A stretch of DNA of 43,282 nucleotides from a virus: UHGV virus genome UHGV-0369400; one strand, 5' to 3'. This document shows positions 780 through 21,628 of this stretch, piece after piece. The notes under the pieces were generated by a model, which saw only the letters and a program-made list of their open reading frames with translations, searched no databases and had not been told where the DNA came from. Position numbers and translations under genes: made by a program. Within the stretch, counting starts at the first letter, position 1. Each line of letters starts with the position of its first letter.

Positions 780-1536
780 GCTGTTTTATAGCATTATAGG
801 CTGGGTGAACTACCCGGACACATCCACACCAGTTGGCAAGACAAATCTGCGCCATATGGATAATGGTATCCTGCAATGTGCGCAATATATCCTTGGCCTA
901 TCTCAGGACAAACTGGAAGTATCGGATGCGGCCAAATTTATAACTGGATGGGAAGTTGACACATCCACTTGGATTGTAACTGTAACACATAAGGATGGCA
1001 CTGTAGAAACGGTAGATTTTCCTATTGAGATGATGCCAACAAAGCTTGATCTGGACGAAGATGGTAATCTCGTACTGGTCCAACAGGACGGAACCATAAA
1101 GAAGATCAGCTTCCAGCGTTTTGTTTATAACGTTTCCAGTACAGCGACTATTGCAATGAACCTGGATGGAACGACTATATCTGCAAATGTGGTAGACGGG
1201 TCAATAACAGCAGATAAGCTAGAGCCTACATTGCAGAAGACTTTACGGCAGTATATGCTTGATGCTCAGACAGCAGCGCAAGAGGCAGAGGCATATAATA
1301 AATCATCTATAAGCTATGCTGTGGGTGGTACTGGTTCCAGAACAGGGGAAGATACTGACAACAGCAAATTTTATAGCAAAAAGGCGAAAGAAGAAGCTGA
1401 AAAGGCTGGGACATATGCAAATCTGATCTTACCGGAGTTTTATCTGGATGCATCAACAGGGCATTTGATGTGCAAACAAGGAAAAACAGTAACAGTTAAA
1501 GTTGAAAATAACCATGTATTAGTGGAGGTGGCATAG
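766..1536 (+). CDS. Tail fibre-associated structural protein (256 aa from ATG 766).
   Basis: The ORF has an RBS (GGAAAGGAAG) before ATG 766. It sits between the tail fibre genes. The stop TAG overlaps the GTG start of the next gene. Confidence 0.5.
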   Translation: MKLSELFYSIIGWVNYPDTSTPVGKTNLRHMDNGILQCAQYILGLSQDKLEVSDAAKFITGWEVDTSTWIVTVTHKDGTVETVDFPIEMMPTKLDLDEDGNLVLVQQDGTIKKISFQRFVYNVSSTATIAMNLDGTTISANVVDGSITADKLEPTLQKTLRQYMLDAQTAAQEAEAYNKSSISYAVGGTGSRTGEDTDNSKFYSKKAKEEAEKAGTYANLILPEFYLDASTGHLMCKQGKTVTVKVENNHVLVEVA

Positions 1537-2246
1537 TGGCAAGCACAACAGATCTTGGTAAGTGGATGCTTACCAATGGTGGAGAATACAATCCGGAAAC
1601 AGCATATGAACAACTTACAATGGTAATGTATGAAAACAGTACGTATATTACCTTGAAGACTGTACAAGGCATCACACCTACAGATGATCATATTAATTAT
1701 CAGCTGATGGCTAAAGGCTTTAACCCTACAGCCCTGGAATCAGTGCAGGCAGAGGATACCAGCGGAGTGCTGGGAGAAGTGGGCGGTACAGTTTCTGCAC
1801 AGGATTTGATAAACTGGGTAGTAGATCAGGCTGCTACTAAGTTGCTTAAGATCAGCGATCTGGTAAGCGTACAGACCAATGATGCGACTAAAGGTGTTTC
1901 TGCGGCACTGGCCTATGCTATGGGGCAGAAACTTGATCAGCTAAATAGTAATTTACCTTCGCCTACAGGCTTACTCATACAACATGGATATGGGTACGAT
2001 TATAATTCAACAGATGATTTTTCAATATCAATAACTTTTGAAAAATCTTATACCCAATGGGTGCAAGTTTTTTGCAATATACCTGCAACGATGAGCGGCA
2101 CTTATTTTCATGTAGCAACTGCACATTCTATTACTTTTAATGGCTGTAAATTGTCTGGAAGAGCAATTAATATAGACGGCTCTACCATTAGCTCTATATC
2201 GAAAAAACCATCAGAAGGTATTCAATGGGTTGCTATTGGTGTCTAA
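1536..2246 (+). CDS. Tail fibre / receptor-binding protein with an exchangeable C-terminal ~97 aa (variant A currently expressed).
   Basis: GTG start with GGAGGTG 5 nt upstream. The ORF contains the in-frame inverted-repeat copy at 1937-1954 (codons QLNSN). A silent alternative C-terminus is encoded convergently just downstream. Confidence 0.6.
   Translation: MASTTDLGKWMLTNGGEYNPETAYEQLTMVMYENSTYITLKTVQGITPTDDHINYQLMAKGFNPTALESVQAEDTSGVLGEVGGTVSAQDLINWVVDQAATKLLKISDLVSVQTNDATKGVSAALAYAMGQKLDQLNSNLPSPTGLLIQHGYGYDYNSTDDFSISITFEKSYTQWVQVFCNIPATMSGTYFHVATAHSITFNGCKLSGRAINIDGSTISSISKKPSEGIQWVAIGV
1937..1954. repeat. Inverted repeat, left copy (TCAGCTAAATAGTAATTT), lying inside the tail fibre coding sequence.
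   Basis: It is the reverse complement of 2521-2538 with 17/18 identities. It is read as (D)QLNSN in the fibre frame. Confidence 0.8.
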
Positions 2247-2249
2247 TGA

Positions 2250-2520
2250 TCATTTTTTGTAACAAACACGTATAGTTATTGGAATTTGACCAGTTTTATT
2301 TATACCATAACCTATGATTGCCAACATTCCTCTTCCTGCCGCCTGTTGGTTTACAACAAGACGTAGCCATTTCTCCCAATGATCTTTTTGGCTAAATGCT
2401 GTTATGGAAACAATATCATTAAATGAAAAACCTACAGGTGGAGATGTGATTTCATACGAGCTTTCTGTCCATGTTTTTAGGGTTGATATGGTTATTATGC
2501 TATTATACTCTACAGTTAAA
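2250..2520 (-). other. Promoterless silent cassette encoding an alternative tail fibre C-terminus (variant B, ~95 aa) on the minus strand.
   Basis: The minus-strand frame from the IR (codons QLNSN, same phase as the plus gene) to the TGA at 2250 encodes a non-repetitive peptide: FLTVEYNSIITISTLKTWTESSYEITSPPVGFSFNDIVSITAFSQKDHWEKWLRLVVNQQAAGRGMLAIIGYGINKTGQIPITIRVCYKK. It shows weak similarity to the C-terminus of ORF 1536-2246 (DDFSISITFEKSYTQWVQVF). It has no start codon or RBS of its own. The stops of the two variants lie 3 nt apart across the palindrome TGATCA. Confidence 0.55.
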
Positions 2521-2538
2521 AAATTACTATTTAGTTGA
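2521..2538. repeat. Inverted repeat, right copy (AAATTACTATTTAGTTGA).
   Basis: Reverse complement of 1937-1954. It is read as QLNSN on the minus strand in the same codon phase. Confidence 0.8.
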
Positions 2539-2604
2539 GTAATAGAAACAGAAAAATCGCATATATTAAGTAAAAAAAACAAAAGAAAAAGAAAGGAAAA
2601 AAGA

Positions 2605-3015
2605 ATGAACGAAAAAATCAAGTTAAAAAATGAAAAAGAATTTGATTTAGTAGTAAACGGGCTTGATGCGTTTAGCGACAGCCTTAAGTTGACATTTTTG
2701 TCGGATGACAACCTTGAAGATCTGATCACTATTTTCTCCAACGCTTCCAACACGGATCAGATAAAAATCATCAATGGCACTGGGGAGACATTAGCCGTGT
2801 ATGATGGTTATACTGCTTTGGGAAATCCCAAGAGTGTAGATGACAATGCACAGGTGCAACCCGCAACTTATAATGATGATGGCAGCGTAAAAGCTGAAGC
2901 TGTAATGGGCAGGGCTGTAACACTGATTCTGTCCCAACCAGGAGTGACAGAACAGGTTAAACACAATAGAGCTGACATAGACTTTTTGGCTGTAATGACA
3001 GGAACCGATTTATAA
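2605..3015 (+). CDS. Hypothetical protein (136 aa) in the tail fibre region, possibly XkdW-like.
   Basis: ORF with an A/G-rich RBS. It sits between the fibre genes and the XkdX-like gene. Confidence 0.4.
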   Translation: MNEKIKLKNEKEFDLVVNGLDAFSDSLKLTFLSDDNLEDLITIFSNASNTDQIKIINGTGETLAVYDGYTALGNPKSVDDNAQVQPATYNDDGSVKAEAVMGRAVTLILSQPGVTEQVKHNRADIDFLAVMTGTDL

Positions 3016-3027
3016 GGAGGAGCGCAT

Positions 3028-3159
3028 ATGTTAAGTGTAAAGAATCTGGCTGAAAAATACTATCCAAAATATTGGGACAAAGATAGACTTAGAACTTTGG
3101 TACAGGCTGGAAAACTGACAGAAGAAGAGTATCAGGAGTTGACCGGAGAAAAATATTAA
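3028..3159 (+). CDS. xkdX: XkdX-family small phage protein (43 aa).
   Basis: AGGAGG RBS before ATG 3028. Sequence MLSVKNLAEKYYPKYWDKDRLRTLVQAGKLTEEEYQELTGEKY matches the XkdX family pattern. It lies just before the lysin, as in PBSX. Confidence 0.6.
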   Translation: MLSVKNLAEKYYPKYWDKDRLRTLVQAGKLTEEEYQELTGEKY

Positions 3160-3189
3160 GTTTCACCGGTGCAAAAGAAAGGCGAAATT

Positions 3190-3969
3190 ATGAGAGATAT
3201 TACTTTATGCCATCCACGTTTACAGAAGCTGGCAACAGAATTGATTTCCAAGTGTGCCGCCAAAGGCTTGCAGATCAAAATCGGGGAAACTCTCAGGACA
3301 AAAGCAGAGCAAGATGATTTATATGCTCAGGGGCGTACAAAACCGGGAAATATCGTGACCAATGCCCCAGGCAGCAGTTACAGCAGTTATCACCAGTGGG
3401 GTACAGCCTTCGACATTTATCGTGCAGATGGCCGCGGCGCCTATTATGATTCAGATGGATTTTTTAGCAAGGTTGGCGTGATCGGCACATCCATCGGCTT
3501 GGAATGGGGTGGAAACTGGAAGAGTATTGTAGATAAACCACATTTTCAACTTCCAGACTGGGGAAGTGGTACCAGTGGGATTAAAAAGCTCTATAAAACT
3601 CCGGAAGAGTTTATGAAAACCTGGTCAGCCGTGGAAAAGCCGAAGATCATAGAAGGCTGGCAGCAGGAAAATGGCGGTTGGCGCTTCTATTTAAAAGACG
3701 GATCTGGGAAGTATGTTTCCAATGACTGGTACAAAGACGGAGAACTCTGGTACTGGTTCGACGGTGCCGGCATGATGGTTCATGATATCTGGTATCAATA
3801 CAAAGGGTCTTGGTACTATCTCGGCTCCGACGGCGCCATGCTAAAGGGCTTACAGACAATCAATGGCAAGTGGTACTACCTGAATCAGGACGGTCGCATG
3901 GCAACTGAACCAGTAGTACTTACTCCTGATCAGGACGGCTCTCTCCACTATCCAGGATTAGTACTATAA
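3190..3969 (+). CDS. Endolysin: peptidase M15 (VanY / L-Ala-D-Glu peptidase type) N-terminal domain plus C-terminal cell-wall-binding repeats.
   Basis: The SxHQWGTAFD...DKPHF zinc-ligand pattern is typical of M15 peptidases. The C-terminal half carries repeated aromatic GW/YY motifs (WYWFDGAG, SWYYLGSDGAM, KWYYLNQDGRM) typical of CW_binding_1 repeats. ATG 3190 is preferred over GTG 3169. Confidence 0.75.
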   Translation: MRDITLCHPRLQKLATELISKCAAKGLQIKIGETLRTKAEQDDLYAQGRTKPGNIVTNAPGSSYSSYHQWGTAFDIYRADGRGAYYDSDGFFSKVGVIGTSIGLEWGGNWKSIVDKPHFQLPDWGSGTSGIKKLYKTPEEFMKTWSAVEKPKIIEGWQQENGGWRFYLKDGSGKYVSNDWYKDGELWYWFDGAGMMVHDIWYQYKGSWYYLGSDGAMLKGLQTINGKWYYLNQDGRMATEPVVLTPDQDGSLHYPGLVL

Positions 3970-4103
3970 TAGTCGTCACAATTTCCAAATGAGCCAGTTC
4001 TTCTGTACCAATATCTGTAAGGACTGCCTTGCATTCCTTATATAACATGGAATAACGCTGGGAAAGATAACGCATGGCTACACCTATCTATAGGTGCAGC
4101 AGT

Positions 4104-4184: not shown

Positions 4185-4241
4185 CTCACAAACCCGCATA
4201 AATGCTAGATTTCAGTGTTTTCACGGGTTTGTGAGTTTTTA
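4185..4241 (+). terminator. Putative rho-independent terminator of the late / lysis operon.
   Basis: A 12-bp perfect stem (CTCACAAACCCG / CGGGTTTGTGAG) is followed by TTTTT. The loop is long (27 nt). Confidence 0.45.
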
Positions 4242-4246
4242 CTTTA

Positions 4247-4272
4247 ACGGGTTCGATTCCCGTTATCTGCTC
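4247..4272 (+). other. tRNA 3'-end-like fragment (T-arm ACGGG-TTCGATT-CCCGT plus a 7-nt acceptor-like tail). Candidate attP core.
   Basis: GGTTCGATTCC matches the universal tRNA T-loop. No complete tRNA can be folded here. Such fragments are typical of phages that integrate into the 3' end of a tRNA gene. Confidence 0.45.
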
Positions 4273-4300
4273 TTGAAAAATGGCTTATTTAAGCCATTTT

Positions 4301-5542
4301 TTATTGCGCGTGTTGCATTTCGTGTTGCATAGCTTCCAAAACAGCTTTTTTCCATCCCTCCGGATCTTCTTTTTTCAGCCGGTTCACAACTTCTTTTATG
4401 GATTCTTTTTCGCTTTTTTCGGTTCCCACGATGCTCTCAAAGTAGCTGTCAATTTTATCATCAACCTTTTGCCGCTCCGACGAAAATGTCTGCATGTAGA
4501 CCTTTTTCATGACAGCATCCGACTTCCAGCCACCGCGCTCCTGGGCGTATTTGTCTGGTATTTGCAGCAAGGCCATAACGGAGGCATTGAGGTGCCGCAG
4601 ATCGTGAAACGTGATAGGGTCCTTTATACCGTGGATTTTTTGCAAGCGTTTCCAGCGGTGGTGCAGTGAAACGTCAGTCATCGGCACCAGTACATCTCCA
4701 GGAACCTTGTCGATCAGACCTTTTATATAAGCCGGTATTTTGTGTTTGCGTTTTCTCGTGTTGTTCTTCGCTGTCTCTTTTCTTACAGCTTTTCCTTTTA
4801 CGGTAATGACAGTCTCTTTTATTGTTATGTAATCACCATTAATTGATTTGGATTTTGTAAGACCGCGGATCTCCGATGCTGTGAACGACAGCCACATTGC
4901 AAGCAGCACCGGCAGCTCCATTTCGGTGCCGCGTACTATATCCATTACTGTTTTTGCATCTGGCAGGTCAACCATTCTTTGCGTTGGCGTAGGTAATTGC
5001 AGATTGTCGGTGCGGATGTTTGTGTATTTGTGCAGCACAGAGGATACAAACCCCCATTCATTTTTCAGCCGCTTTGCTGTAAGGGTCTTACCCGGCTTTC
5101 CGTTGACAGGTCTCTGCGCTTCTTTGGCTATGGCGTTTTGCAGTAGATCTTCCGATATGTCACACAGGCGCATGTTAAAAAGATCCTGGAACCCGTTCCG
5201 CATGATACACTCATAGTCTTCTATGGTGGACGGAGACCTTTTCAATGTTCTGCACAGATCTATATATTTTTCTGCCGCCCCTCTAAGCGTCATATTCGCC
5301 TCTTGGTTGCGCCTTTCCGCTTCACGTGAATCTTTCTCTGCCATGTATTGTGCAGCTGCCAATTCGACCCGTTTGCGCCCTTTGATTGACGGGTCATCAT
5401 CTGTAAAGGACTGATATATTCTTTTTTGTTTTGGTTTTCCGTTTTGCATGACGGGTGTTCCGTCTGGATTTAAGACAGGCTCGTAGTGGTCAAACACTAG
5501 TACACGCCATGATCCTGAGGGTAATTTTTTTGCTTTTGCCAT
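4301..5542 (-). CDS. int: Tyrosine-type phage integrase (414 aa from the ATG at 5542).
   Basis: C-terminal catalytic region: HDLRH...GGWKSDAVMKKVYM gives the R..H..R..Y signature. RBS AAAGGAG precedes the ATG at 5542. The gene lies between attP and the repressor module. Confidence 0.85.
   Translation of the reverse strand: MAKAKKLPSGSWRVLVFDHYEPVLNPDGTPVMQNGKPKQKRIYQSFTDDDPSIKGRKRVELAAAQYMAEKDSREAERRNQEANMTLRGAAEKYIDLCRTLKRSPSTIEDYECIMRNGFQDLFNMRLCDISEDLLQNAIAKEAQRPVNGKPGKTLTAKRLKNEWGFVSSVLHKYTNIRTDNLQLPTPTQRMVDLPDAKTVMDIVRGTEMELPVLLAMWLSFTASEIRGLTKSKSINGDYITIKETVITVKGKAVRKETAKNNTRKRKHKIPAYIKGLIDKVPGDVLVPMTDVSLHHRWKRLQKIHGIKDPITFHDLRHLNASVMALLQIPDKYAQERGGWKSDAVMKKVYMQTFSSERQKVDDKIDSYFESIVGTEKSEKESIKEVVNRLKKEDPEGWKKAVLEAMQHEMQHAQ
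4309..4332. repeat. Direct repeat CGTGTTGCATTTCGTGTTGCATAG, second copy (right arm). It overlaps the stop of int.
   Basis: Identical to 4104-4127. Confidence 0.5.
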
Positions 5543-6594: not shown

Positions 6595-6978
6595 CTATTT
6601 TTTACGTTGCTTTGCAATAAAAGCAACAGAAATCTTGATCTGGTCGAGCAATAAGTTTATGCTCTCCTGATCTACGGGCTGACCGTCAAAATATAACGGT
6701 GTCACTTCTCCGCTTTTTAACATTTTCTCAAGACGGTTAAACTCATCTTTTAGATCTATTGGTTTTTCTTCTGCAACGGCATCTTCCTCCTCCCCTGTTA
6801 TTAGATAGTCAACAGATACGCCCAAAAAATCGGCAATCTTTTTGAGCTTATCCTGTTTCGGTGTATATCTTCCGGCTTTCCAGTTACTAAGAGTCGATGT
6901 AGAAATTCCGGTTCCCTTACACACGCGGTAAGGTGTTACACCTTTTTCAGAGCATAACTTTTCAAATAAACTATACAT
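6595..6978 (-). CDS. XRE-family HTH repressor (cI-like, 127 aa).
   Basis: HTH_XRE signature (TGISTSTLSNWKAGRYTPKQDKLKKIADFLGVSVDYL) followed by a C-terminal extension. It is divergent from the cro-like gene. Confidence 0.8.
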   Translation of the reverse strand: MYSLFEKLCSEKGVTPYRVCKGTGISTSTLSNWKAGRYTPKQDKLKKIADFLGVSVDYLITGEEEDAVAEEKPIDLKDEFNRLEKMLKSGEVTPLYFDGQPVDQESINLLLDQIKISVAFIAKQRKK

Positions 6979-7142: not shown

Positions 7143-7352
7143 ATGGTGAAAATGTACAGCAAATACGCAGAATTAAGAGATAAAGCAGGCATTACTGACT
7201 ATGAGGTCGCAAAAAAGACAGGCGTTTCCACATCGACTCTTAGCAACTGGAAAGCTGGCAGATATACGCCGAAAGCTGACAAAATCCAGAAGATCGCTAC
7301 ATATTTCGGTGTCGGAATTGAGACCCTGCTGGAAGGAGATAAGGGGAGGTGA
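7143..7352 (+). CDS. cro: Cro-like XRE-family HTH regulator (69 aa).
   Basis: HTH_XRE signature (TGVSTSTLSNWKAGRYTPKADKIQKIATYFGV). First gene of the rightward early operon. Confidence 0.75.
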   Translation: MVKMYSKYAELRDKAGITDYEVAKKTGVSTSTLSNWKAGRYTPKADKIQKIATYFGVGIETLLEGDKGR

Positions 7353-9204: not shown

Positions 9205-9903
9205 ATGTGTAGATTTAAGAGCGGAATTATCTTGAAAAACAAAATCGTAATTGCGCCAGAAGATAATGAAAGCCATTCCGATTTGCTGAAAATCCTCGGA
9301 ATTAAGGACGATTACATAGGCGCATCAAAAACCTTTGTTCGGGCTGAACTGGTACCGAAAAAAGATGATGAGTGGTGGATTGATCCGGAAGAAAAACCGG
9401 AGAAATGGGTGTTTGTCGTTGATCAAGATATAATTCCTGATTGGTTTGACAAAGAAACGCATGAGAAAGAGTTCCGCGAATCAGTATGCGACTGGTGGAG
9501 AAAGCATGTACTTGTTGACAAAAAGCTGGAAGAGCTGAAAACTGGTTTTTACCGGCTTAAACGCTGCGAAGTGAAAAAGTTGCTTAATGATGTACGCGTG
9601 ATGTTGGACAGCTCACAGGTCGGCGAGATGCGGGACAGCTCACAGGTCGGCGAGATGTGGGGCAGCTCACAGGTCGGCGAGATGCGGGGCAGCTCACAGG
9701 TCGGCGAGATGTGGGACAGCTCACAGGTCGGCGAGATGTGGGGCAGCTCACAGGTCGGCAAGATGTGGGACAGCTCACAGGTCGGCGAGATGTGGGACAG
9801 CTCAACCGCACGAGACTTTAAAAATTATCCGGTTATAAAAATCATGATTCCAGATGGTGGAAAATTTGAAATGGTTGTGCATAAAAACAAAGACGATGAA
9901 TAA
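9205..9903 (+). CDS. Hypothetical early protein (232 aa) with an internal nonapeptide tandem repeat, SSQVGEM(R/W)(D/G), in about 7 copies.
   Basis: GGAGG RBS. The repeat is encoded by near-identical 27-bp units. Confidence 0.55.
   Translation: MCRFKSGIILKNKIVIAPEDNESHSDLLKILGIKDDYIGASKTFVRAELVPKKDDEWWIDPEEKPEKWVFVVDQDIIPDWFDKETHEKEFRESVCDWWRKHVLVDKKLEELKTGFYRLKRCEVKKLLNDVRVMLDSSQVGEMRDSSQVGEMWGSSQVGEMRGSSQVGEMWDSSQVGEMWGSSQVGKMWDSSQVGEMWDSSTARDFKNYPVIKIMIPDGGKFEMVVHKNKDDE
9606..9806. repeat. 27-bp tandem repeat array (GGACAGCTCACAGGTCGGCGAGATGYG), about 7.4 copies.
   Basis: Units are nearly identical, differing only at 2-3 transition sites per unit. The array is GC-rich relative to its flanks. 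Confidence 0.85.
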
Positions 9904-14178: not shown

Positions 14179-14313
14179 ATAAAAAACTTGCGGTCGGTTT
14201 ATATGTCACGATATACTCTTTGACCATTAACCTGGGGCGGGAACCTATCATAGTCCTCCAAAAACCCGCCCCAAAAGGAGGGACCACAAGGAAACACCAA
14301 GAGGAGAAGAAAG

Positions 14314-14838
14314 ATGAAAACGGACAAATTTTACAAAGCCAGGATGGATGGTTTAGCATACGCCCTGGAGATCGTAGAAAAAGGCGGGGTAGAGGCATTG
14401 AAAAAAGAGCTGAAAGTCAGAAATGCTTACTTTATCCCTATGGAGATATCCAGCAAAAAAGCTGAAGAGCTTAGTGAAATGTTGGCGCACAGAATCCTGG
14501 CCACATTCGTGCCTACAGTGATGTTTTCACTTAATCAGGCGTTTGGATTTGGTCGTGATCGGTTGTTAAGATGGAAGGATGCGTTTATCAACCTTTGCGA
14601 TATGATGGACGCCGTGGACCCGTTTGGGTGCCAGTATGAAACCGTAAAGGATTATGCGGAAGAATTACAGCGAAAATACAATATTGAGTTTGATTGGGAC
14701 AGCATAGATGAAGTAATCGGTCTTAATCAGAACCATAAAAAACAGTTATGCGAAATTGATTATGTGATCAGCTTTCTTGAAGAGAAGGGGCAAGCAGAGG
14801 CCGCTGGACTGATCAGGGAGTATGGGAGGAAGAGATGA
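14314..14838 (+). CDS. Hypothetical protein (174 aa).
   Basis: ORF with a GGAGG-like RBS (AAGAGGAGAAGAAAG). Confidence 0.45.
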   Translation: MKTDKFYKARMDGLAYALEIVEKGGVEALKKELKVRNAYFIPMEISSKKAEELSEMLAHRILATFVPTVMFSLNQAFGFGRDRLLRWKDAFINLCDMMDAVDPFGCQYETVKDYAEELQRKYNIEFDWDSIDEVIGLNQNHKKQLCEIDYVISFLEEKGQAEAAGLIREYGRKR

Positions 14839-18929: not shown

Positions 18930-20583
18930 ATAGAGTAAACTTACTGTCAGTTGGAGAGTCGCAGAAGATTCCCTGCTATGAACTTGCCCAGATCGTTTTC
19001 TCATAGTCTACTTCTCCCACAGTGTTTTGTCAAATACCTCCCAGACGCTCCCGGATTGCAAGCTTTTTCCGGATGTCTATACTCGGGATGGTTGCCTGCA
19101 GCTTTTCGATGTATACCCTGTCATTGTCATGACTGTGGAGTAACAGACTCCTCATGTATCCCCTGTTTGGACGCACTGATATCTCCTCGGTTCCCGTTGC
19201 TTCTTCCTGCTTATGGCTCCGCCGGTACTTTACCAGTTCCAGGATCTTTTCTTCTCCGTAATCCTTCACATAGCATCTCAGCTGACACATCGCATCCGCT
19301 CCGGCTTCGCTCCAACCCATCGGACGGGAACTCATCCGGTCGGAATACATATGACTCACATGACCTTCTGCACTGCATCCATAGACATTCTTATCCTGCA
19401 TTCTTCTCACTGCGCTATCCCAGTTGTTCAGCAGGTATTCCTCACAGTCATTCACTGCTTTTTCGTTCGGCGCACATTTCCGGATAGCTTTTATAGTCTT
19501 TACAAACTTTTTCTTCTTGCCCTTATACAGGGCCTTCCACAGCCGTCCTTTGGCTTCCCCTGCCTCATCCAGCATCTGGTTGGCCGCCTTGTTGATATAT
19601 TTCATCATGTGGAACTTATCCAGTACCGGAACTCCCTTTTCAATATATTCCGCCCCTGCTTTGATCCATGCTCCTCCATCTCCACTGATATACACCGCAT
19701 TCAGATACCGGCTCTCGTAGTTCGTGTCGATGTATTCCTGCATCCGTTCAAACAGATGTCTGTTTGCTTCTCCTCCGCTGCAAAGACCTCCCAGGTAGAA
19801 GACATTCTTCAGTTCCTTCCGCCCGTCTTTCTTTTCCTGTCCTTCATACAGATACAACAGCTTCCCGATCATGCTGCCCTTCTTCTCTGTTCCGTTTTTC
19901 TCCTGCTTGTGAATGTGATCCTCGTCTGCCTCAACATAAAGGTATTCCACACACTTTTTCTTCTCCGGCTTCGGGAAGGGCAGTTCTGTCTGGATTCCGT
20001 GTACCTTATCCATGACGGCAGTCTTGCTGATCAACGAATCTTCTCCCAGTACCCTGGCAGCACTGGCATAGCTGGTCTTTACCGCTTCGGCCAGCACCTC
20101 AGCTTCCGCACGGCTGCTCAGTCTTTCATGGGCATCCAGTTCCATCCATTCATCCAGAAGATAATGGCAGGTTCCATCCTTACAGCTTCGGAACAGCGTG
20201 TGGGTAAAGCAAACCGGTCCCACTGTAGTCAGCAGCTGGCGTTCATCATGCCTCTGGATGGTATATTTTTCAGCTCTGGAAATATCCTCACACAGCATAC
20301 GATCCATGTCGCTGTAAAGGGCTGCCATGTGCTCTGCTGCAGCCTTTCTTGCAGCCTCCGCAAGCTGCTTCTCGTACAATTCCATGTCCTTCATCCCGGA
20401 TGAGAGAAAAAGTTCATCTGCTTCTTCCAAATCTTTGTACAGCTTTTCCATTGAATATGCTATAATGTTTTTCATGAGAGTGCCTCCATCGTCTGTATTT
20501 TAGATTCTCGTCAAATCCATTATAACAGAGATGTTGGTACTCTCTTTTTTTCTTTTATTCAACTGACAAAAACTTTACTCTAT
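18930..20583 (-). mobile_element. Insertion sequence (1654 bp) with about 26-bp imperfect terminal inverted repeats (ATAGAGTAAAC... / ...GTTTACTCTAT-like). It is flanked by an 11-bp direct repeat AATTACTATGG (18919-18929 and 20584-20594).
   Basis: Terminal IRs and the target-site duplication were read directly. It carries a single 481-aa transposase ORF. Confidence 0.75.
19030..20475 (-). CDS. DDE transposase (481 aa), tentatively ISLre2 / UPF0236 family.
   Basis: Long, non-repetitive ORF filling the IS. Family assignment is from size and sequence character only. Confidence 0.5.
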   Translation of the reverse strand: MKNIIAYSMEKLYKDLEEADELFLSSGMKDMELYEKQLAEAARKAAAEHMAALYSDMDRMLCEDISRAEKYTIQRHDERQLLTTVGPVCFTHTLFRSCKDGTCHYLLDEWMELDAHERLSSRAEAEVLAEAVKTSYASAARVLGEDSLISKTAVMDKVHGIQTELPFPKPEKKKCVEYLYVEADEDHIHKQEKNGTEKKGSMIGKLLYLYEGQEKKDGRKELKNVFYLGGLCSGGEANRHLFERMQEYIDTNYESRYLNAVYISGDGGAWIKAGAEYIEKGVPVLDKFHMMKYINKAANQMLDEAGEAKGRLWKALYKGKKKKFVKTIKAIRKCAPNEKAVNDCEEYLLNNWDSAVRRMQDKNVYGCSAEGHVSHMYSDRMSSRPMGWSEAGADAMCQLRCYVKDYGEEKILELVKYRRSHKQEEATGTEEISVRPNRGYMRSLLLHSHDNDRVYIEKLQATIPSIDIRKKLAIRERLGGI

Positions 20584-20590
20584 AATTACT

Positions 20591-21628
20591 ATGGGCCAGA
20601 ATATCAAAAGAGAAATCGTTGATAACATCGTTGTTGCAATGTCAATTTACATTTCTGAACCGGGCACACTTGCAATTTTGGACAGTGTAATATCGAGTGA
20701 GCTTACAAAGGTAACCATGCAGGAAATCACATCTCTTCCAGCGGAGTGGAAAACAGATGTAGAAAAAAGAAACCGCTATTTACTGGAACTTTTCAAGATC
20801 AAAAAGCGCGGGCTCAGCCCTGCGACAATCAGCGGATATATCCGATCTGTAAAAAGGTTATCTGACATGATAGGGAAGTCGTTGGACAGTGTAGATACAT
20901 TTGATGTGGAGTGGTATTTGGCACAGTACGAGAAACGCCCAGGAACAAAAAGTGAAAAGGTACAGGACAGAACATATAATAACGAGCGCCGATTCCTTTC
21001 GGCTTTTTACACATGGATGCGAAAATCAAAACTCATTGATGAAAATCCTGTGGAAGCAACGGAAGCGAAAAAGATTGCGCTAAAGCCAATTGATTACTTT
21101 AGCCGGTCGGAGATTATCCAGATGCGTGACGCTTGCCGTACAAAAAGAGAGCGTGCGATCATTGAGGTATTCCGCAGCACCGGAGCGCGGGTTGGAGAAA
21201 TCTCAGAGATCAGAATCGACCAGATCAATACAGAAACGGGAGATATACTCATCAAAGGGGAGAAGGGCGGTAGATACCGCACATTATACCTTGATGATGA
21301 TGCAAGGCACTATTACAATGAATATCTTGAAAGCAGAACGGACAGCAGCCCGTACATGTTTCCACAGACCAGGGCACCATACAATAAAATGAGCGTATGC
21401 GGTTTAAGAGTCATAATTAAAGATATTGGAAAGAGAGCGGATGTGAAAAGCGCGGTATATCCTCATAAAATGAGGAAAACGCTTGGAATGAATTTAAAAA
21501 ACAGAAAGGTTGATATCGGTATCATCCAAGAGATTCTAGGACATGCCAGCCCGGCGGTGACAAGCATGTATTATGCTCAATCAACGCCAAAAACGCTGAG
21601 AGATGTCCGGGAAATGGTACAGATTTAA
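20591..21628 (+). CDS. Orphan tyrosine recombinase (XerC/D-like, 345 aa). The IS insertion has separated it from its native RBS.
   Basis: Catalytic region ...RVGEISEIRIDQI...YRTLYL...HKMRKTLG...ILGHASPAVTSMYYAQ gives the R..H..R..Y signature. Its ATG lies inside the right copy of the IS target-site duplication. The original GAGGGAG RBS is now to the left of the IS, at 18912-18918. Confidence 0.75.
   Translation: MGQNIKREIVDNIVVAMSIYISEPGTLAILDSVISSELTKVTMQEITSLPAEWKTDVEKRNRYLLELFKIKKRGLSPATISGYIRSVKRLSDMIGKSLDSVDTFDVEWYLAQYEKRPGTKSEKVQDRTYNNERRFLSAFYTWMRKSKLIDENPVEATEAKKIALKPIDYFSRSEIIQMRDACRTKRERAIIEVFRSTGARVGEISEIRIDQINTETGDILIKGEKGGRYRTLYLDDDARHYYNEYLESRTDSSPYMFPQTRAPYNKMSVCGLRVIIKDIGKRADVKSAVYPHKMRKTLGMNLKNRKVDIGIIQEILGHASPAVTSMYYAQSTPKTLRDVREMVQI

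Follow-up and report, generated by a model that had tools for sequence, protein, structure and literature searches.

Probable tail-fiber tip switching by an invertible segment

The 43,282-nt stretch of viral DNA analyzed here (UHGV virus genome UHGV-0369400; hereafter the window) contains, at positions 1943–2532, what is probably a site-specific recombination module: a shufflon-type tip switch of the tail fiber, operated by a tyrosine recombinase for which the gene product of 20591–21628 is the best candidate (Table 1). As judged from assembled contigs and database proteins, both orientations of this segment occur in nature, in different samples, and the reading frame is kept in each. The same comparisons show conserved sites in which a change on one arm is matched on the other, and boundaries of exchange that coincide with the site core.

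In the mechanism that we propose, the segment would hold two promoterless, convergent tip cassettes (A and B) for gene 1536–2246, and recombination between the inverted 12-bp cores would flip it. The constant 139-aa N-terminus, which ends in Asn-Ser-Asn, would then read into B rather than A, and this change of tip would alter the receptor-binding domain of the fiber and presumably its host or receptor range. The cores and a palindrome between the cassettes may also delimit units that are exchanged between phage genomes, such that many tips, held in common, would be available to each phage. The flipping enzyme would be a Xer-like tyrosine recombinase, with 20591–21628 as the best candidate, working at a distance.

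Table 1. Features of the putative tip-switching module and the recombinase genes considered. Positions refer to the window.
Feature	Positions	Strand	Remarks
Tail fiber (receptor-binding protein), constant N-terminal part	1536–1942	+	Residues 1–136; ends at the crossover core
Left crossover site S(L), core AAATAGTAATTT	1943–1954	+	Asn-Ser-Asn codons plus TT; full arm 1937–1954
Cassette A, expressed tip	1955–2246	+	97 aa, LPSPTG...IQWVAIGV; stop codon TAA at 2244–2246; H-type-lectin/gp53-like beta domain
Junction palindrome P, TAATGATCATTT	2244–2255	.	Family consensus AAATRATYATTT; between convergent cassettes A and B; unique in the window
Cassette B, silent tip	2250–2520	-	90 aa, FLTVEY...RVCYKK; no start codon or RBS of its own
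Right crossover site S(R), core AAATAGTAATTT	2521–2532	-	Full arm 2521–2538
Phage integrase	4301–5542	-	413 aa; PF00589; judged an unlikely invertase
Candidate invertase, Xer-like tyrosine recombinase	20591–21628	+	345 aa; no arm-binding domain; ~19 kb from the segment

Inverted repeat and crossover sites

The arms of the inverted repeat (TCAGCTAAATAGTAATTT on the left and AAATTACTATTTAGTTGA on the right) are complementary at 17 of 18 positions and are separated by 566 nt, in agreement with the preliminary description of this locus. No 18-nt inverted repeat with at most one mismatch and arms within 1.5 kb was found in 30 Markov shuffles. By the same definition, the 43-kb window has one other locus, which is accounted for by CI/Cro HTH paralogy. 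The preliminary description had also stated that the two arms share one codon phase, and this was found to be correct: the plus strand reads GAT CAG CTA AAT AGT AAT TTA and the minus-strand arm reads ACT CAA CTA AAT AGT AAT TTT, with the residues QLNSN shared. The 12-nt core AAATAGTAATTT has exactly two occurrences in the window, both at the cassette joints.

The same repeat, for which related phages had been suggested as a place to look, is present in frame in all of the relatives compared, and where it changes, both arms change alike. These relatives keep just ~12 nt of the 18-nt repeat, and the conserved site across 37 distinct segments is (A)AATAGTAATTT(A/T). The core of the left joint is kept in all relatives examined; at the right-hand sites the core is likewise kept, and the outer flanks vary. 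Five core variants were found, each matched on both arms (ATAGTAATTT, ATAGCAATTT, ATAGCAATAT, ATAGTGATTT, and ATAGTGATAT), and none of the segments compared pairs AGT with AGC. For example, contigs L199 and L202 have identical cassettes and flanks, and the A/G difference between them is present in both arms. Polymorphisms linked to the flanks confine the crossover to ATAGTAATTT. Because the core positions that vary are partly synonymous and are untranslated in the silent copy, the constraint acts on the DNA. Three of these positions co-vary and span 5 bp, which would fit the 6–8-bp overlap of a tyrosine recombinase better than the 2-bp crossover of a serine recombinase.

Both orientations in nature

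Inversion of the segment in silico produces an uninterrupted ORF of 229 aa with the frame kept. The predicted protein is present in the databases (P0001; 100% identity and 100% coverage), along with near-copies of the flipped chimeric fiber (P0002–P0004; 98–99%). Moreover, contigs L005, L006, L007, and L146–L148 contain the A/B segment flipped, with an identity of 99.3%. The earlier prediction that inverting 1955–2520 swaps the fiber C-terminus in frame is thus matched by an exact chimera and by flipped segments in contigs. In L146–L148 the fiber N-terminus is only ~30% identical to that of the window and the flanks are not alignable; the match runs from core to core (window 1943–2534). L005 and L006 diverge from the window beyond the right-hand end of the segment, whereas the short contig L007 does not extend far enough for a judgment. 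A second reciprocal pair has the tip DSGYFKIK expressed and ETLGTNKL silent in L116, L123, and L124, with the reverse in L119 and L153.

In the three assemblies of the exact lineage of the window (ERZ807461, ERZ807467, and ERZ807469), A is the expressed tip. No contig was found in which both window flanks are identical and only the segment is flipped, and among assembled contigs no single sample has both orientations. The relatives with a flipped segment or other tips argue for a genuine switch of host range, known in its general type, in a new group of phages, and switching may be ongoing in the phage of the window.

Fiber gene and tip cassettes

The tail-fiber ORF (1536–2246) is located in the tail module, after genes for the tape measure, a DUF6711 Dit-like protein, and a Peptidase_S74 tail protein, and has weak PHROG tail-fiber matches. 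Dozens of database proteins share its 139-aa N-terminus at 99–100% identity and are wholly different after QLNSN, and fiber proteins of the window type in public data comprise 540 protein clusters. Cassette A aligns with cassettes that match PF09458 (H_lectin), and its own match to Gp53-like_C is below threshold (E = 0.008). AF2 modeling gave pLDDT values of 58–81 for the C-terminal beta domain of A, with weak fold matches to the LKA1 tailspike and R2 pyocin fiber tips (E about 0.03); the N-terminus is poor in the model of the full-length A fiber (mean pLDDT 51). In L005, L006, and L146, this cassette occupies the silent position.

Cassette B is expressed in frame on the window-type N-terminus in P0001–P0005 and, at 98–100% identity, on two other unrelated fiber N-termini (P0122 and P0123), always after NSN. 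Its AF2 model is all-beta (pLDDT 62); a fold search with this model gave no meaningful match, nor did a domain database search. The minus-strand ORF called mechanically (2250–2753) extends antisense across the RBS and start of gene 2605–3015. The sequences upstream of the silent cassettes are entirely different among relatives, and B is therefore not an independent gene; consistent with the earlier remark that B has no start of its own, in none of the relatives is the minus-strand piece a separate gene with a start codon. The stop codon of B is the complement of 2250–2252, inside TAATGATCATTT, and lies 3 nt from that of A across TGATCA, as previously noted. Of the lengths given in the preliminary description for the variable parts, that of A (97 aa) stands, whereas B has 90 aa rather than ~95. 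The faint similarity reported there between A and B was not supported by BLASTP (E = 0.043, on a different stretch from the one reported) or by the profile–profile comparison that had been suggested as a check (probability 0.4%), and homology between the two cassettes was rejected.

The TGATCA motif belongs to a conserved 12-nt palindromic element (AAATGATCATTT) that marks cassette boundaries. With at most one mismatch, this palindrome was found in 25 of the 37 distinct segments, compared with 83 of 2022 background windows of 300 nt. Among loci with one common cassette and different partners, the homology breakpoint is at the palindrome in five of six comparisons, such that the partners are reassorted between convergent cassettes at this element. 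Approximately 30 to 45 unrelated tips of 80–110 aa are joined to constant regions exactly after Asn-Ser-Asn. On these comparisons, the cassettes are members of a large pool common to several phage lineages, and the palindrome may have a role in their recombination.

A more speculative possibility, which we regard with some doubt, is that the S cores and P (AAATGATCATTT) are two kinds of site and that each tip is mobile as an S-tip-P unit, with a distant Xer-like enzyme flipping these units or exchanging them, one at a time or as pairs, between co-resident genomes. The palindrome has its outer AAAT/ATTT in common with the core. If true, S-tip-P units would represent natural recombinase-mediated cassette exchange between phages with quite different fibers, and the phages of gut Clostridia would have at least 45 receptor-binding tips in an integron-like pool spanning the community.

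Candidate recombinase

Pfam searches of the scanned window proteins and of the gene calls of near-identical relatives, which together span the genome, found no serine recombinase or reverse transcriptase. Consistent with the preliminary description, no invertase gene adjoins the segment, and the only gene for an armless Xer-like tyrosine recombinase distinct from the integrase is the one at 20591–21628. Its product contains PF00589 and a SAM-like N domain, is XerA/XerD-like at scores under the family cut-offs, and has a XerC-like protein as its closest solved structure. It is 29–33% identical over the full length to the recombinases beside cassette arrays in L151, L153, L161, and L169, with 123–154 bits to these proteins vs. 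at most 93 bits to any solved Xer structure. The family is present in nine of nine genomes with both regions visible, across three fiber N-terminus lineages. We infer the class and identity of the enzyme from these comparisons: it is most likely a Xer-like tyrosine recombinase, and the candidate named earlier is still the best one. An ISLre2 element is located directly upstream of the 20591 gene in the window and might affect its expression.

Xer-like tyrosine recombinases adjoin equivalent arrays in three other fiber lineages. In L153 and L154 the recombinase adjoins an array with the same core and cassettes as the window; L151 has four sites, with the recombinase gene between the two pairs; and L169 and L170 have an array-associated recombinase with a different core, located in L169 ~0.8 kb downstream of the array. 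In 80 relatives, the candidate recombinase gene is never adjacent to a fiber locus. Two apparently complete contigs with such fibers (115982 and 3300029558_000016) are absent among the best 80 of 123 recombinase matches, possibly because their own matches rank lower. A homolog with 51% identity is present in Clostridium phage phiCs5676-1, in which a convergent ORF and an IS200-like insertion come after the RBP gene; no convincing site pair was found in this phage.

The integrase (Table 1) was also considered as the invertase. The homology with the prophage in L109 ends at 4274, after a tRNA-like T-arm (GGGTTCGATTCCCGTTATCTGCT) unlike the core. Integration of the phage into a Mn-catalase gene was rejected.

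Comparison with known inversion systems

The fiber switches Mu G/Gin, P1 C/Cin, e14 P/Pin, and p15B Min have an adjacent serine recombinase, ~26-bp sites of dyad symmetry, and a 2-bp crossover, as well as a Fis-bound enhancer and a fiber-assembly gene that is co-inverted. The analogy drawn earlier to Mu G, P1 C, and shufflons was right as to the working principle: an invertible segment with inverted repeats in the fiber gene joins a constant N-terminus to alternative C-termini, with alternative host ranges. In contrast to these switches, no PF00239-type protein is present among the scanned window proteins or in near-identical relatives, the conserved site measures 12 bp and includes three positions that co-vary over 5 bp, and the segment consists of two tip fragments without a fiber-assembly gene. 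In the R64/IncI shufflon, the tyrosine recombinase Rci acts on sfx sites to select among pilV tips. There and probably here, inversion by a tyrosine recombinase picks one of several C-terminal adhesin tips, and in both only part of the site is conserved; multi-site versions exist among the relatives of the window (L016, L120, and L151, with four sites). However, the R64 adhesin belongs to a pilus rather than a phage fiber, and the window has two, shorter sites, a recombinase that is not adjacent, and cassettes that are exchanged between genomes.

The closest precedent is the Rin shufflon (Mavrich et al., 2018, PMC6109161; PMC8778435), a tyrosine-recombinase system in prophages of Bifidobacterium and Eggerthella. 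Both have a constant RBP N-terminus (Rc) and promoterless, mutually dissimilar C-terminal cassettes (Rv) of about 95–100 aa that are joined by inversion; for the window, both fusion products are in the databases. Both also have very short asymmetric repeats at the constant/variable joint (8–11 bp in Rin and ~12 bp in the window), which here are rare elsewhere, with the core found twice in the window and conserved in 37 segments. By domain organization, the basis of this comparison, each has an armless Xer-like tyrosine recombinase separate from the integrase, and in L151 and L153 the gene is beside or inside the array as in Rin. The window itself differs in this respect, with its recombinase ~19 kb away rather than beside the array. 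The hosts are Actinobacteria for Rin, compared with the Clostridia/Lachnospiraceae-like flank here, and both the fibers and the sites (TTCCCTAACCC or TTCCGTAT in Rin vs. AAATAGTAATTT) are unrelated. Furthermore, the window cassettes form a convergent pair about a conserved palindrome, and the joint and cassette pool are common to several different constant regions.

The tRNA-Met bifidophages have a second inversion of ~500 bp at an 8-bp sequence, without a flanking recombinase (PMC6109161). It resembles our case in that the inverted stretch, which differs in orientation between relatives, contains a small convergent ORF and the 3′ end of a gene for a tail protein, but it is based on two genomes, with no candidate enzyme or cassette pool described (PMC6109161). 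A diversity-generating retroelement was rejected, as there is no RT in the annotations and A and B are unrelated sequences. An integron-like cassette system was rejected as well: the element at the cassette ends is a 12-nt palindrome rather than an attC-like imperfect hairpin, and the 20591 protein scores 53.7 bits against integron integrase cut-offs of 265. The resemblance to integrons is functional only.

Alternative explanations

Trans-acting invertases are known, and it is conceivable, albeit less probable than action by the phage's own enzyme, that the recombinase is supplied by a co-resident prophage (e.g., of the L153 type) or by the host, and that the 20591 gene does something else. 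The dedicated recombinase next to the core AAATAGTAATTT and window cassettes in L153 and L154 is only 29% identical to that of the window. In L151 and L169, a different core goes with a different sub-type of recombinase; by this reasoning, the cognate enzyme for the window core would be of the L153 type. In addition, many phages have a member of the 20591 family at a fixed position before the packaging genes, including phiCs5676-1, which lacks a site pair, and a phage inversion without a recombinase has been noted in bifidophages (PMC6109161). However, L153-type recombinases are rare (three IMG/VR contigs, compared with hundreds of window-type fibers in the 540 protein clusters) and were rejected as a general helper on this ground; dependence on a rare helper also fits poorly with both sites being strictly conserved in nearly every genome.

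It is unlikely that no dedicated site-specific recombination is involved, with the joint reflecting a structural need at the end of a coiled-coil neck and the cassettes shuffled by general or illegitimate recombination. The arrangement in the window would then be static, with occasional inversion through ERF/Gp157 or short homologies. The phage does encode an ERF-type annealing protein and a Sipho_Gp157, and mosaic exchange at short homologies is documented in temperate phages (PMC3945230). No within-sample heterogeneity was seen in the assembled contigs, and L005 may be explained by ordinary homologous recombination within the shared 587-bp segment. Nevertheless, a protein-level constraint fails to explain the conserved synonymous positions or the conserved untranslated outer copy, nor does it explain the matched two-arm changes in five core variants, the conserved palindrome, or the recombinase genes embedded in equivalent arrays. 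In addition, 12 bp is far below the usual length of homologous-recombination substrates. A chance match or an assembly artifact, with the minus-strand ORF as an unrelated gene or noise, is highly improbable. Although the repeat is short and AT-rich and cassette B has no database domain match, the shuffles contained no comparable repeat, B is translated in frame on three different N-termini, and >35 independent segments, which come from a range of studies and assemblers, have kept the repeat. The 18-nt repeat is also shorter than the assembler k-mers (k119 and k141 contigs) and would thus be unable to cause mis-orientation. This reading is already refuted by the flipped protein, the inverted contigs, and the multi-segment conservation.

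Distribution and biological implications

A blastn search of window positions 1000–3200 against INPHARED phages gave no match, and tblastn of the fiber gave one distant match only; on these searches, the phage family of the window is absent among deposited phages. Genome contigs scanned with the fiber N-terminus gave one MAG locus among the matches listed, which was irrelevant. The host belongs to the Clostridia, and probably to the Lachnospiraceae; the host-flank gene YgeW in prophage contig L109 is only ~90% identical to Lacrimispora, Blautia, and Clostridia proteins.

Host range is the chief gap in our understanding of uncultured gut phages. The patterns described here suggest that an abundant temperate phage family of gut Clostridia changes its fiber tip by flipping a 0.6-kb segment, and that tips are common to several lineages through one 12-bp joint. 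The simple sequence signature (constant region-AATAGTAATTT-tip) offers a means of finding receptor-binding domains and phase-variable fibers in metagenomes, and tip switching offers a reason for broken or conflicting assemblies at the fiber locus. As a compact natural system with short sites and a small recombinase, the module is a possible tool for swapping phage tips, a use to be tested. Such a switch would extend the tyrosine-recombinase fiber shufflons from Actinobacteria to Firmicutes phages, and also to an enzyme located away from its target.

Inversion of the fibre tip segment

The segment at 1955-2520 is flanked by inverted crossover cores, holds two fibre tip cassettes, namely the expressed A and the silent, minus-strand B, and occurs in both orientations among related database contigs (L-numbers). 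The position of the 18-nt inverted repeat reported in the preliminary description was confirmed; 17/18 nt are complementary and the arms are 566 nt apart. Both arms encode Gln-Leu-Asn-Ser-Asn in the same phase, and in-silico inversion of the segment gives an open reading frame of 229 aa. Thirty shuffled versions of the window contained no inverted repeat of comparable quality. The real window has one other such repeat, which exists because the CI-like and Cro-like genes encode a near-identical HTH stretch (STSTLSNWKAGRYTPK). An inversion in the cro region has been reported for Roseburia phage Shimadzu (bioRxiv 10.1101/575076).

When the hypothetical flipped fibre protein was searched against database proteins, it matched fibre protein P0001 at 100% identity and 100% coverage and P0002-P0004 at 98-99%; the window's own A-form fibre is represented by P0061. 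At the DNA level, L005, L006, and L007 carry window 791-1954 in direct and window 1943-2538 in reversed orientation (99.3% identity). The clearest case of inversion is L146-L148, in which window 1943-2534 is inverted at 99.3% identity. The fibre N-terminus of these contigs is only ~30% identical to that of the window and their flanks are not alignable; therefore, the homology starts and stops at the 12-nt cores. A second reciprocal pair involves two other cassettes, named by their first residues: L116, L123, and L124 have DSGYFKIK expressed and ETLGTNKL silent, and the reverse state is found in L119 and, with yet another fibre, in L153. An assembly artefact is excluded because the contigs were produced in different studies by different assemblers, whose k-mers greatly exceed 18. 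None of the contigs compared has both window flanks with only the segment reversed, and A is expressed in all three assemblies of the exact window lineage.

Crossover site and junction palindrome

The site comparison covered about 70 loci, which gave 37 distinct segments. The 18-nt repeat of the window is not conserved at its full length; its outer parts vary, and ~12 nt are maintained, with (A)AATAGTAATTT(A/T) as the sole conserved part. The variants include GATCAGCTA, GAGCAAACA, and GCGACGCTA in the constant-side flank and CTCAACTAA, TTCCGCTAT, TTCCTTCAA, and TTGTGTATA on the outer right side. Five core variants were found (ATAGTAATTT, ATAGCAATTT, ATAGCAATAT, ATAGTGATTT, and ATAGTGATAT), each change being present on both arms, and AGT was paired with AGC in none of the segments compared. 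L199 and L202, which share cassettes and flanks, show an A/G difference in both arms. Because some varying core positions are synonymous and the codons of the silent copy are untranslated, what is constrained is the DNA sequence, and one arm has to agree with the other. The base directly 5' of ATAG (A, G, or T) travels with the flank, whatever cassette is attached, and the base after AATTT travels with the cassette; thus, the crossover lies within ATAGTAATTT. Three co-varying positions over 5 bp would fit the 6-8-bp overlap of a tyrosine recombinase better than a 2-bp serine crossover.

The TGATCA noticed earlier between the cassettes is the centre of a 12-nt palindrome. Copies with ≤1 mismatch occur in 25/37 segments, compared with 83/2022 background 300-nt windows. 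For loci with one common cassette and different partners, homology breaks at the palindrome in 5/6 comparisons. The cassettes of L001 are B/C and those of L178 are C/X (C and X being other cassettes), despite near-identical flanks (mostly 99%; 96-99% over aligned stretches). An outer AAAT...ATTT is common to the palindrome and the crossover core. The palindrome may be a second recombination site for single-cassette exchange; alternatively, it may serve as an accessory binding site in the middle of the loop.

Pool of tip cassettes

Dozens of proteins have the 139-aa fibre N-terminus at 99-100% identity and diverge totally right past QLNSN. About 30 C-termini were found among the 49 sequences read, and the loci hold 45 cassette types in 99 occurrences. 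Cassette B is found at 98-100% identity on two further constant regions (P0122 and P0123), always past Asn-Ser-Asn, and the fibre types of L150 and L153-L156 have cassettes in common with the window type. A and B themselves are unrelated in sequence, so the faint similarity proposed previously was not upheld. Some tips match the H-type lectin family, and A aligns with that group. A also scores just under the threshold for the gp53-like fibre C-terminus, and its modelled beta domain has a weak likeness to the R2 pyocin fibre tip and the LKA1 tailspike tip. From the tip position and fold class, we infer that the switch affects host range.

Several relatives carry further rearrangements. Four sites and four cassettes are found in some (L016, 6735-7347; L120, 6649 and 8543), with the second site set lying beyond the lysis genes in L016 and flanking the integrase in L120. 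Between L006 and L016, the whole lysis module appears to have flipped by way of these sites, since the right flank of the L006 segment (1646-1915) matches, in reverse complement, the stretch immediately preceding the third L016 site. In L019 and L106-L113 (10409-11300), a third cassette, NIKADAY, follows the expressed NSLIKIAE in tandem but out of frame; the joint is a core-like sequence (AATAATCAATTTAAAT), and a 274-nt spacer is left. In L107, the entire silent cassette is missing, owing to a deletion that ends inside the right-hand site. Additionally, P0006 (241 aa) has the window-type N-terminus joined right past QLNSN to a C-terminal fragment of a UvrD-like helicase (PF13361), and may have arisen by recombination at a secondary site within some unrelated gene.

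Candidate invertase

Genome-covering Pfam annotation of the proteins of the window and its near-identical relatives identified two tyrosine recombinases, an ISLre2 transposase, and ERF/Gp157, but no serine recombinase or reverse transcriptase. Of the two tyrosine recombinases, the integrase is an improbable invertase, as prophage homology ends past a tRNA-like T-arm bearing no relation to the core. In L152, L153, and L154, a 331-aa Xer-like recombinase lies beside an array that shares its core and cassettes with the window, starting about 80 nt past the silent-cassette ORF, or about 100 nt outside the right-hand core. In L151 (4436-6712), a recombinase lies between two site pairs (core TTGTATAGTGATTT); in L169 and L170, one follows an array with a different core, which in L169 (4072-4666) is TTTAAACGGCAGTTTA, read as Leu-Asn-Gly-Ser-Leu. 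The adjacent recombinases of L151/L169-type shufflons share 32-36% identity among themselves. A tyrosine recombinase of this broad family is probably responsible for the inversion. A recombinase of the L161/L162 type also lies beside a fibre match, on contigs reaching 91-114 kb; L161 yielded no repeat pair.

The Xer-like product of the gene at 20591 may itself be the invertase, an assignment that we make tentatively. It has full-length homology to the array-adjacent recombinases, including the N-terminal extension (29-33% identity), and scores 123-154 bits against them compared with ≤93 bits against any solved Xer. Its family (64-100% identical) is present in 9/9 genomes in which the fibre and recombinase regions are both visible, covering three fibre N-terminus lineages. 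Cores differing at a co-varying position are found with recombinases of 98% identity, as expected if this position lies in the overlap region. On the other hand, this family never adjoins a fibre in 80 relatives, occurs in phiCs5676-1, where the site pair is absent, and has no entry for two complete-looking relatives among the matches listed (best 80 of 123). These patterns all count against the assignment. The L153-type enzyme would be the obvious cognate of the window core but is rare (3 contigs). We consider an invertase supplied in trans rather unlikely.

An ISLre2-family element occupies the short intergenic gap directly upstream of the candidate gene in the window and in L143 (ERZ807467), and is absent upstream of the Xer-like gene in the otherwise collinear L142. 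This insertion could alter expression of the candidate invertase.

Genome setting

The window holds the complete genome (~43 kb) of a temperate phage in circularly permuted form; the prophage copy L109 spans its end/start junction without a break. The host could be placed in the Clostridia, probably in the Lachnospiraceae. Homology between L109 and the window stops right past the T-arm (13062 in L109), which is presumably the attachment core. In L109, a tmRNA gene lies ~1.1 kb beyond the T-arm on the opposite strand (14212-14549).

Coordinates of features in the window
Feature	Position	Strand	Remarks
Fibre gene	1536-2246		Within tail module; 5': tape measure, DUF6711 Dit-like protein, 675-aa Peptidase_S74 tail protein, 256-aa protein; 3': XkdW-like protein, XkdX, M15/choline-binding endolysin
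Crossover cores	1943-1954, 2521-2532		Inverted
Cassette B	2250-2520	-	Silent
Junction palindrome			TAATGATCATTT; family consensus AAATRATYATTT; between two convergent cassettes
Mn-catalase-like fragment ORF	3920-4075	-	51 aa; overlaps endolysin gene end; in all relatives
tRNA-like T-arm	about 4240-4274		ACGGGTTCGATTCCCGT
Integrase	4301-5542	-	
CI-like repressor	6595-6978	-	Divergent pair with Cro-like gene
Cro-like gene	7143-7352	+	
Second inverted repeat	6874-6905, 7224-7255		
Early-region ORF	9205-9903		232 aa; 27-nt unit at 9596-9804 (7.7 tandem copies, 93% matches) encodes SSQVGEMW/R repeats
ISLre2-family transposase	19030-20475	-	481 aa; NF033529, 244 bits
Candidate invertase	20591-21628	+	345-aa Xer-like protein

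Relation to known systems

The analogy drawn earlier with Mu G, P1 C, and shufflons applies to the way of working. However, the window system is not a member of the serine-invertase switches (Mu G and P1 C): it has no serine recombinase, its site is different, and the assembly gene that those switches carry in the segment is absent here. The closest system is the Rin shufflon: the window has a constant N-terminus with alternative promoterless cassettes that inversion would bring into frame, and short asymmetric repeats at each joint, whereas its recombinase is not adjacent; the recombinases are comparable in domain organisation. The Rin layout, with the recombinase by the array, is known from Bifidobacterium and Eggerthella prophages (PMC6109161, PMC8778435), and is also the layout of L151-L154, L169, and L170. 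No description of this fibre-switch family was found in the literature searched, and no deposited phage carrying it was found by searches with the window DNA and the fibre protein. The new features are the host group, a 12-bp joint inside the Asn-Ser-Asn codons that is common to several fibre families, a unit of two convergent cassettes around a conserved central palindrome, a recombinase distant from the array, and a pool of cassettes across the population.
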